Positions 17,822 through 18,716 of a stretch of DNA of 26,928 nt are shown one piece after another (the stretch's first letter is position 1; each line of letters starts with the position of its first letter). Source of the DNA: Nitrososphaerota archaeon (lineage in GTDB: Archaea > Thermoproteota > Nitrososphaeria > Nitrososphaerales > Nitrosopumilaceae). The stretch covers positions 1-26,928 of the forward strand of contig JAUWQG010000001.1 of the NCBI GenBank assembly GCA_030611185.1, read 5' to 3'. The notes under the pieces were generated by a model, which did not search any database, was not told where the DNA came from, and was given only the letters and a program-made list of their open reading frames with translations. The position numbers were made by a program, and so were the translations under genes.

Positions 17822-18253
17822 ATGAAAAAAATATTTCTAATAATTCCCATTAGTATAATAATTGGGGTTATAGTTTTAGGCTCCCAATCAGACCAACCTA
17901 ATACAAATAATGAACCTGTTTTTCATGTAACTCTAGCCAGTCCTGAACTATACGAAAATGGAGTTTACTCCAGTACATTTGATTTGGAAAATGGTGAATA
18001 TTACTTTCGATTTGTGCCTAATGGAGATAGTCCCCAAAATCTTACAATTTCATTAAATGGAGATGATTTTGCATTTTCTGAAGATTTCAAATTGAATGGA
18101 ACATTACATGATACAGGAATTTCTGAATATTATACATGGGATTATGATGGCCAAAAATCTATTCTAATTCCAACTCAAAAAGAAATATTCATTCAGATTA
18201 ATCCAAATGGGAATCTAAAGGGAAGTGTATCTGTAGATATTATAGGAAATTAA
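17822..18253 (+). CDS. Hypothetical N-terminally anchored or exported beta-rich protein
   Basis: MKK plus hydrophobic helix, then a beta-strand-rich domain. Confidence 0.85.
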   Translation: MKKIFLIIPISIIIGVIVLGSQSDQPNTNNEPVFHVTLASPELYENGVYSSTFDLENGEYYFRFVPNGDSPQNLTISLNGDDFAFSEDFKLNGTLHDTGISEYYTWDYDGQKSILIPTQKEIFIQINPNGNLKGSVSVDIIGN

Positions 18254-18381
18254 AAGGCGTGCCCCTCTGATTACAGAACTGTGAGAGATTTCCTCTCGTG
18301 GTCAGGGTTTTAGGACCTGATTGCCTTTTCCGTTCTGTAGGGCCACGCAGTTTAGTCGATAGGAATTATGTCCTTCGGCAT
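18252..18381 (-). ncRNA. Candidate multibranched structured RNA, family unassigned
   Basis: GC-rich island with nested stems GCGTG/CACGC, CCC/GGG, TACAGAAC/GTTCTGTA, GAGAG/CTCTC and TCAGG/CCTGA. Minus-strand TTAAATA box at 18404-18410 and a U4 run at the 3' end. Strand is uncertain. Confidence 0.55.
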
Positions 18382-18716
18382 GAAATATTATAGTAATTTT
18401 AACTATTTAATATTTAATGAAAATTTTTCTATAATTTTTGATATTTTTAGTAATTTTTATAATAATTTTTTTATGGATTTATTTATAAAAATTAAAAGCT
18501 AATTTTTTAAAAATTTTTAGAACCAAATGTCATGATATTTGAAAACTAAAATATTATTTTAGGAACTTTTCATTTGAGATTTCTATTTGATAATTTCTCT
18601 AAATAAAAATTCCATAAAATTATTTTGCAAAGTGACAATAGCTCAAATTTTTTACTTTAAAATTATTATCATTTTTTCAGAAATCCTTGAAGTATAAATT
18701 ACGAATTTTATGGAGA

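Follow-up and report, generated by a model that had tools for sequence, protein, structure and literature searches.

An uncatalogued structured RNA family of Nitrosopumilaceae that carries a conserved, putatively leaderless nine-codon reading frame at its 5' end

Background

Short reading frames are found next to RNA structure in a few well described systems. The bacterial dual-function small RNAs SgrS/SgrT, RNAIII/delta-haemolysin and SR1/SR1P encode functional peptides of 26-43 amino acids from a start with a Shine-Dalgarno site, and the RNA part of these transcripts acts by base pairing. In translation attenuation, the nine-codon leaders of cat-86 and cmlA and the leader of ermC regulate the gene that follows them in the mRNA by making its ribosome-binding site accessible. 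From the marine archaea of group II, Tan1 has been described, a structured small RNA of 229 nt with no function assigned to it (PMC5069720).

Few archaea are as abundant worldwide as the Nitrosopumilaceae, which drive nitrification in the sea, and RNA-based regulation in them is barely described. Here we report on an RNA gene of about 130 nt that runs on the minus strand from about position 18381 to about position 18250 of a 26,928-nt stretch of a Nitrosopumilaceae genome; this whole stretch is called the window throughout. Judged by sequence comparison the RNA is the founding case of a new family, and a further RNA of the same genome belongs to a sister family. Both carry at their 5' end a frame of mostly nine codons at a nearly fixed distance from the closing helix.

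Results

The initial annotation of this locus had judged by eye that the element is not 5S, SRP, RNase P, tRNA or TPP, and had suggested a search of Rfam and a search for homologues in related genomes. The judgement was borne out: none of the 4227 models of Rfam 15 matched anywhere in the window at the gathering threshold, there was no Rfam tRNA match, and ARAGORN found neither a tRNA nor a tmRNA gene in the window. When the local 351 nt were searched at E <= 10 only four chance matches were obtained, with 13-15 bits against thresholds of 36-219, and 20 diverse homologous loci gave no match at E <= 0.1. No description of this RNA was found in the open-access literature, which is what our search covered.

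Homologues were found throughout the family. When a 161-nt query was run through BLAST, another copy was detected on contig C150 of this genome, with 81% identity across the core. Each of the 18 genomes of the genus, and many further genera of Nitrosopumilaceae, gave matches over the full length at 70-90% identity. A covariance model, R1, built from an alignment of 39 copies (A1), matched 136 of 151 sampled Nitrosopumilaceae genomes and 25 of 27 genera, with 1-4 copies in each genome, some of them in tandem; the matched records include Nitrosopumilus, Nitrosarchaeum, Ca. Nitrosomaritimum, N. salarius BD31 and CSP1-1. The window copy scored 143.7 bits against R1 (E = 6.7e-33) over model positions 1-136, with P1-P4 and the 5' mini-ORF present. 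R1 was not found when the search was extended to 19 other families of the order, represented by 128 genomes (E <= 0.01, with the stricter filters of Infernal). A metagenome scan added 80 further copies from marine, sediment and groundwater samples; no metagenome contig marked a transcript end, as all 91 stretches lay within long genomic contigs. At the level of sequence these searches show an uncatalogued RNA family that is restricted to Nitrosopumilaceae and has one to four paralogues per genome.

The copy on contig C150 (1395-1530, minus strand, locus L002) is of a paralogue type that we call type B. Its mini-ORF reads MSLVVKSGD. Its neighbours are a convergent PurP-type gene (DUF1246/DUF1297) and, with the RNA copy on their upstream side, an 86-aa ORF and an HD-domain gene. 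Tandem copies about 180 nt apart occur in one genus (L099 at G170:C1:1604373-1604800, and G150:C184:10090-10522), and each of the tandem copies has its own mini-ORF, MPMIVKSIN and MPIVPTVD.

The features of the window copy are collected in Table 1. The 130-nt stretch folded better than its dinucleotide shuffles whichever strand was taken, with z = -3.8 for plus and z = -3.2 for minus. Every stem that had been drawn from the single sequence in the initial annotation was found in its place, together with the two hairpins inside P1 and P2 (18283-97 and 18301-21), and the compensatory changes that it had named as the test of such a fold were present in the homologues. In alignment A1 (39 homologues) 97.7% of the cells were paired and double changes occurred at 11 pairs, a level that was reached by 0 of 500 shuffles, and slid controls were 32-49% paired. 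When 99 distinct homologues were examined, double changes were seen at 25 of the 32 base pairs, a count from a model-fitted alignment that leans towards the structure. Five helices were backed by RNAalifold and by direct pair counts. The CAGAAC/GUUCUG of P2, the P4 hairpin and the 3' end ACGCC were almost invariant across the homologues. The comparative evidence shows a conserved domain, as predicted from the aligned copies, in which P1 is followed by P2 and then by a three-way junction that carries P3, with its variable loop, and P4. APC-corrected mutual information over 155 sequences returned the known helices and a signal of paralogue type only, with no pseudoknot or alternative conserved helix, and a search for conserved target complementarity of the RNA found none.

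Table 1. Positions of the features of the window copy of the RNA gene
Feature	Position in the window	Strand	Evidence or remark
Predicted A-tract AAA at the BRE position, -34 to -32	18413-18415	minus	A at each position in 137-139 of 158 distinct homologues
Predicted TATA box TTAAATAG	18403-18410	minus	common to orthologues and paralogues
Promoter-proximal CTATA, -12 to -8	18389-18393	minus	T(-11) in 141 and A(-10) in 141 of 158; in all paralogue types
Putative mini-ORF ATG CCG AAG GAC ATA ATT CCT ATC GAC TAA, MPKDIIPID*	18352-18381	minus	conserved start, frame and stop
P0, weak 5' hairpin within the mini-ORF, about -6 kcal/mol	18357-18377	minus	fold and covariation, e.g. one pair A-U to U-G or U-A
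Spacer ACU, 3 nt, stop codon to P1	18349-18351	minus	3-4 nt in 142 of 153 homologues
P1 in plus-strand letters	GCGTG 18257-61 with CACGC 18344-48; CCC 18263-65 with GGG 18340-42		pairing in sequence
P1 5' strand GCGUG-G-CCC	18340-18348	minus	partner 18257-18265; double changes at 7 of 9 pairs
P2 in plus-strand letters	TACAGAAC 18272-79 with GTTCTGTA 18332-39		pairing in sequence
P2 5' strand UACAGAAC, CAGAAC nearly invariant	18332-18339	minus	alignment, pair counts
J2/3 junction strand GGAAAAGGCAA, A-rich, conserved	18321-18331	minus	A/G positions nearly invariant; GAAAAA part also in the sister family
P3 hairpin UCAGG-loop-CCUGA	18302-18320	minus	covariation at all 5 pairs; loop length free to vary
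P4 hairpin GAGAGG-AAA-UCUCUC, almost invariant	18283-18297	minus	loop closed by an invariant G-U pair
P2 3' strand GUUCUGUA	18272-18279	minus	alignment, pair counts
AUCAGA, A-rich asymmetric bulge on the 3' side between P2 and P1	18266-18271	minus	in all homologues; sequence and length variable
P1 3' strand GGG-G-CACGC, then an invariant C	18257-18265	minus	alignment, pair counts
Pyrimidine/U-rich tail UUUUAAUUUCC, likely archaeal oligo-U terminator	18245-18255	minus	shares bases with the stop codon of the plus-strand gene that converges on it

Several known RNA types were compared with this domain and set aside. A resemblance to twister that had been pointed out in the initial annotation did not survive, as no ribozyme family, twister or other small self-cleaving type, matched in Rfam even at E <= 10 and the candidate core on the plus strand, CUCUGAUUA, varies freely among the homologues; twister is likewise a compact multi-helix RNA of similar size, and the nucleotides on which the likeness was built are variable here. 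An archaeal H/ACA guide does not fit by eye, as the bulge between P1 and P2 is without conserved tandem G-A pairs and P1 is followed by C and a U-run and not by ACA. A C/D guide does not fit either, since no RUGAUGA or CUGA boxes were seen by eye at the ends and the guide-RNA models of Rfam gave no match. Readings as a K-turn, as a hammerhead or as a purine-riboswitch-like fold need conserved nucleotides that, by eye, were absent or variable. The segment ACGAGAGGA (18291-18299, minus strand; junction and 5' arm of P4) matches the sarcin-ricin loop of 23S rRNA at all of its nine bases; its ACG part varies among the homologues and the likeness is probably due to chance.

The orientation, which the initial annotation had left unresolved with G-U pairs slightly favouring the plus strand, could be settled. 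Only in the window sequence taken by itself do the pairs lean to the plus strand, where P3 can be extended by three G-U pairs, an extension that the family does not support. Family-wide, the consensus helices read on the minus strand contained 131 G-U cells and 16 A-C cells, whereas the best plus-strand structure had 96 and 62, respectively. The 5' stem of paralogue type B, GUCGUUAG/CUGGCGAU, requires three G-U pairs that exist on the minus strand only, being A-C on the plus strand. The minus-strand promoter and the U-run that had been noticed at the outset are both there: TTAAATA lies at 18404-18410 and UUUU at 18255-18252 directly after the closing stem, the promoter is invariant in orthologues and paralogues, the A-tract is upstream of the TATA box only in the minus-strand reading, and a run of at least four T beginning no more than 9 nt past P1 was found in 126 of 158 homologues. 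By the G-U and A-C counts, the upstream promoter and the U-run terminator, the strand of the RNA gene is the minus strand.

The neighbours of the RNA differ from one paralogue to the next. Window-type copies have a convergent gene for a 143-aa exported protein without a Pfam family on one side and a short-chain dehydrogenase upstream, and the convergent gene of type B copies is PurP (DUF1246/DUF1297); in nearly all copies the next downstream gene is convergent, and its end lies anywhere between an overlap of 4 nt and a distance of 48 nt. At locus L086 the downstream gene is co-oriented, and its ATG is preceded at about 30 nt by a TATA box that belongs to this gene. Because the neighbours are unrelated between paralogues and co-oriented followers have a TATA box of their own, the RNA is best taken as a free-standing gene and not as a leader or a 3' UTR; for the same reasons, the convergent position of the downstream gene in nearly all copies and the own TATA box of the L086 follower, a riboswitch or other cis-acting leader was rejected.

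In the window itself the 143-aa protein is encoded at 17822-18253 on the plus strand; it has an N-terminal hydrophobic segment and no Pfam match, and it is a conserved convergent neighbour across many genera. Inside the RNA gene the plus strand has a T-run (18325-18329), TTTT in the window (18326-18329) and TTTTT in most homologues, that is the complement of the A-rich junction strand. Transcription of the convergent mRNA could stop at this T-run, about 75 nt beyond the end of its reading frame, with the two transcripts then overlapping at their 3' ends. A search of the genome for a regulon defined by the promoter layout TATA-N9-CTATA returned the RNA copies and, apart from these, a single gene, which encodes a 40-aa zinc-ribbon protein. 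The latter is a leaderless zinc-ribbon-like ORF with two CxxC pairs on contig C83 (plus strand, about 415-570), and with its promoter, TTAAATAG-N9-CTATA-N7-ATG, it is the sole other gene in the genome that shares the layout of the RNA copies.

At the 5' end of the RNA the ATG at 18381-18379 coincides with the predicted start of the transcript, a start placed by promoter geometry alone; if transcription began at the G of the ATG, with T at -1, the ORF would be eliminated. In the long protein-coding ORFs of the same genome the distance from TATA to ATG has a sharp peak at 28-29 nt, which is the leaderless class, and a leaderless mRNA is expected to start about 28-30 nt past the first base of the TATA box. 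In the RNA, the distance from the first base of the TATA box to the A of the ATG was 29 nt in 143 of 158 distinct homologues. A start codon was found in all 158 of these (156 ATG and 2 GTG) and a frame of 8-10 codons in 153, with nine codons in 143, eight in at least 9 and ten in 1; the stop codon was TAA in 129, TAG in 14 and TGA in 10. The frame was broken in two divergent copies, L123 with 15 codons and L113 with ATG TGA. The ORF segment changed in length by multiples of 3 nt only, and in the internal control for indels, that is the P3 region (27-43 nt) and the 3' bulge region, both of which occur in many lengths, no three-base period was seen. Stops occurred in the +1 frame of 77 of 99 sequences and in the real frame of 1 of 99. 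An unbiased scan of the genome for a TATA box, an ATG 28-30 nt further on and a frame of 4-20 codons, ranked by the fold of the next 110 nt, placed three copies of the RNA at the top, each with nine codons. The conservation of start, stop and frame and the in-frame indels are indirect signs that the mini-ORF may be translated.

The sequence of the peptide is another matter. The ORF regions of 99 distinct sequences were joined in a minimum spanning tree, and the substitutions along it were sorted by their effect in each of the three frames. No synonymous excess was found in the mini-ORF, the synonymous fraction being 0.23-0.32 in frame and 0.14-0.33 in the shifted frames against 0.22 expected under uniform mutation, and therefore a functional peptide is not claimed. 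The 153 RNAs encode 68 different peptides, with MPKDIIPID coming from 50 distinct RNAs, and there are residue preferences for K at position 3, D at 4 and 9, and P or S at 7. The nucleotides of the ORF are also constrained by the pairing of P0, and what is conserved in the stop triplet could instead be a U-R-R motif of the RNA; about one UGG would be expected at this triplet in a sample of this size, so its absence weighs little. We rejected the idea that ribosomes read through the stop codon into the domain, as the spacer length differs by 1-2 nt between copies and no frame is maintained beyond the stop. The initial annotation had proposed an independently transcribed, stable and possibly undescribed non-coding RNA. 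The promoter, the covariation and the lack of any Rfam or tRNA match agree with this proposal, but in view of the leaderless nine-codon frame the RNA is perhaps not strictly non-coding.

A third copy in the same genome (contig C7:895-1027, minus strand; L046/L336) scored only 27.9 bits against R1. It is without the P2 helix (CAGAAC/GUUCUG) and has two other hairpins inside, and RNAs of this type are conserved in every one of the 18 genomes of the genus and, outside it, in a single further genus. The layout is that of the first family, with TATA at -28, a nine-codon frame (MINRANSNE in this genome), a spacer, a closing helix and a U-run. In members that are without the first ATG an eight-codon frame begins exactly one codon later, and the stop is TAA, TAG or TGA at the same position. 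The spacer is always UUU (3 nt), and the GC-rich closing helix ends in CGCGCC. That the frame and its distance to the closing helix outlast the replacement of the interior is the strongest argument for a functional frame.

Discussion

The reading that we prefer, and to which we would give a probability of roughly 55%, is that this RNA is a translation-gated structured riboregulator for which the act of translation matters and not the peptide. The transcript would be leaderless, with its 5' AUG loaded by ribosomes. A ribosome whose A site holds a stop codon extends over some twelve more nucleotides on the downstream side, and with the stop codon only 3-4 nt before P1 such a ribosome would be expected to leave P0 and most or all of the P1 5' strand unwound. 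When nucleotides 1-43 were masked in fold prediction, P1 was lost at a cost of about 11 kcal/mol and P2-P4 persisted. While the mini-ORF is under translation P1 would thus be open, and when there is no translation P1 would be closed and the domain clamped, so that the activity or the stability of the three-way-junction domain would be coupled to ribosome loading. Probably the conserved domain binds a partner, either a protein or a second RNA, and the invariant P4 together with the A-rich junction may be the contact; another possibility is that it protects against decay from the 3' end.

A wider proposal, which we regard as possible and put forward tentatively, is that such RNAs form a new class of archaeal regulatory RNA, in which a nine-codon leaderless frame serves as a landing pad, the transit of the ribosome opens the closing helix, and the activity or lifetime of the RNA reports translational capacity. 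The two sister families of these ammonia-oxidising archaea have one design with different interiors, and if the proposal were true, the arrangement of ORF, spacer and clamp, and not any one fold, would be the functional principle. The mini-ORF at a fixed distance from a conserved helix suggests that the structure of the RNA responds directly to the loading of ribosomes. The RNA is kept in nearly every genus of Nitrosopumilaceae, in several copies, with a sequence conservation above that of many proteins, and even on the most cautious view it adds a new family to Rfam and supplies a gene that is missing from the annotation of these genomes.

Four other explanations were weighed, and in falling order of probability they are an untranslated structured RNA, a peptide mRNA, an antisense or otherwise base-pairing RNA, and a plus-strand element or ribozyme. 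That the RNA is purely non-coding and never translated, for example as a scaffold or sponge for a lineage-specific protein, we hold to be unlikely, though it is the one among these four that deserves most attention. On this view the invariant AUG would serve as an initiator or as an element of the 5' end, with the frame a by-product of P0 and of AT-rich sequence, and such a view would account for a three-way-junction domain that is far more conserved than the ORF region, for the missing synonymous excess, for the covariation in P0 and for a stop triplet whose U-R-R pattern suits an RNA motif. It does not readily account for the length changes in the first 30 nt, which are all multiples of 3 whereas the other loops vary freely, nor for the fact that the only variants of the start are GTG or an ATG shifted by one codon; the fixed spacing from stop to P1, the same frame in a sister family with a different interior and the placement of the ATG exactly where leaderless genes have it are likewise left without a reason. 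The opposite view, in which the RNA is a tiny mRNA whose nine-residue peptide is the effector and whose 3' domain stabilises and terminates the transcript, would explain why start, frame and stop are conserved and why there are some residue preferences, with MPKDIIPID recurring in so many distinct RNAs. We consider it improbable, because the RNAs encode so many different peptides (68 in 153), with non-synonymous change at the level expected without selection, and because the invariant unpaired nucleotides and the invariant hairpin of the 3' domain far exceed what stability needs.

The remaining two explanations turn on the neighbourhood and on the strand. The RNA could act by base pairing, either as a cis-antisense RNA to the 3' end of the convergent gene (143 aa, 17822-18253) or as a trans-acting small RNA with a seed in its 5' region or junction. 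In nearly all copies a convergent gene does end close by, from the 4-nt overlap to the 48-nt distance given above, the tail of the RNA overlaps the stop codon of the 143-aa gene, and the plus-strand T-run could end the convergent mRNA and so bring about an overlap. The convergent partners are, however, unrelated between paralogues (a secreted protein without Pfam match, PurP and others) whereas the core of the RNA is invariant, and the 5' region differs among paralogues; we therefore rate base pairing below the peptide mRNA and think it a poor candidate. That the element belongs to the plus strand, as the 3'-UTR or terminator structure of gene 17822-18253 or as a self-cleaving ribozyme such as twister, appears very improbable to us. 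The window sequence alone folds slightly better on that strand, with P3 extendable by the three G-U pairs, and the element begins directly after the plus-strand stop codon. Against this stand the family-wide G-U and A-C counts, the promoter and terminator on the minus strand, the position of the paralogues 24-48 nt behind unrelated genes, and, for a ribozyme, the empty family search together with a twister-like segment that is not conserved. Translation gating remains the reading that we favour over these four.

Conclusions

When the RNA is set beside the systems described so far, it shares with Tan1 and with Yfr103 of the picocyanobacteria that it is short, predicted to be independently transcribed, has a fold backed by homologues, and belongs to one abundant marine lineage, sometimes with several paralogues. 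There is no match to either of them in sequence or structure, Tan1 comes from another phylum, no 5' mini-ORF has been described for them, and the present RNA is known from sequence. Like tmRNA it is a predicted stable structured RNA with a short frame, but here there is no tRNA-like acceptor end or CCA, and the frame is at the very 5' end with its own start codon. With the bacterial dual-function small RNAs it has in common a short ORF and a conserved structured part in one small transcript; compared to these its ORF has nine codons, is leaderless, is not detectably under selection for its sequence and lies 3-4 nt from the structured domain. The translation-attenuation leaders likewise have a very short ORF from which the ribosome melts the 5' arm of an adjacent helix, and in them too the length and position of the ORF outweigh most of the peptide sequence, whereas here a U-run comes right after the structure, no co-oriented gene follows next, and the RNA is archaeal and leaderless. 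As it has no Shine-Dalgarno site, selected peptide or downstream gene and is archaeal and leaderless, it belongs to neither of these two classes, and by analogy what it most resembles is a cross between a dual-function small RNA and a translation-attenuation leader.
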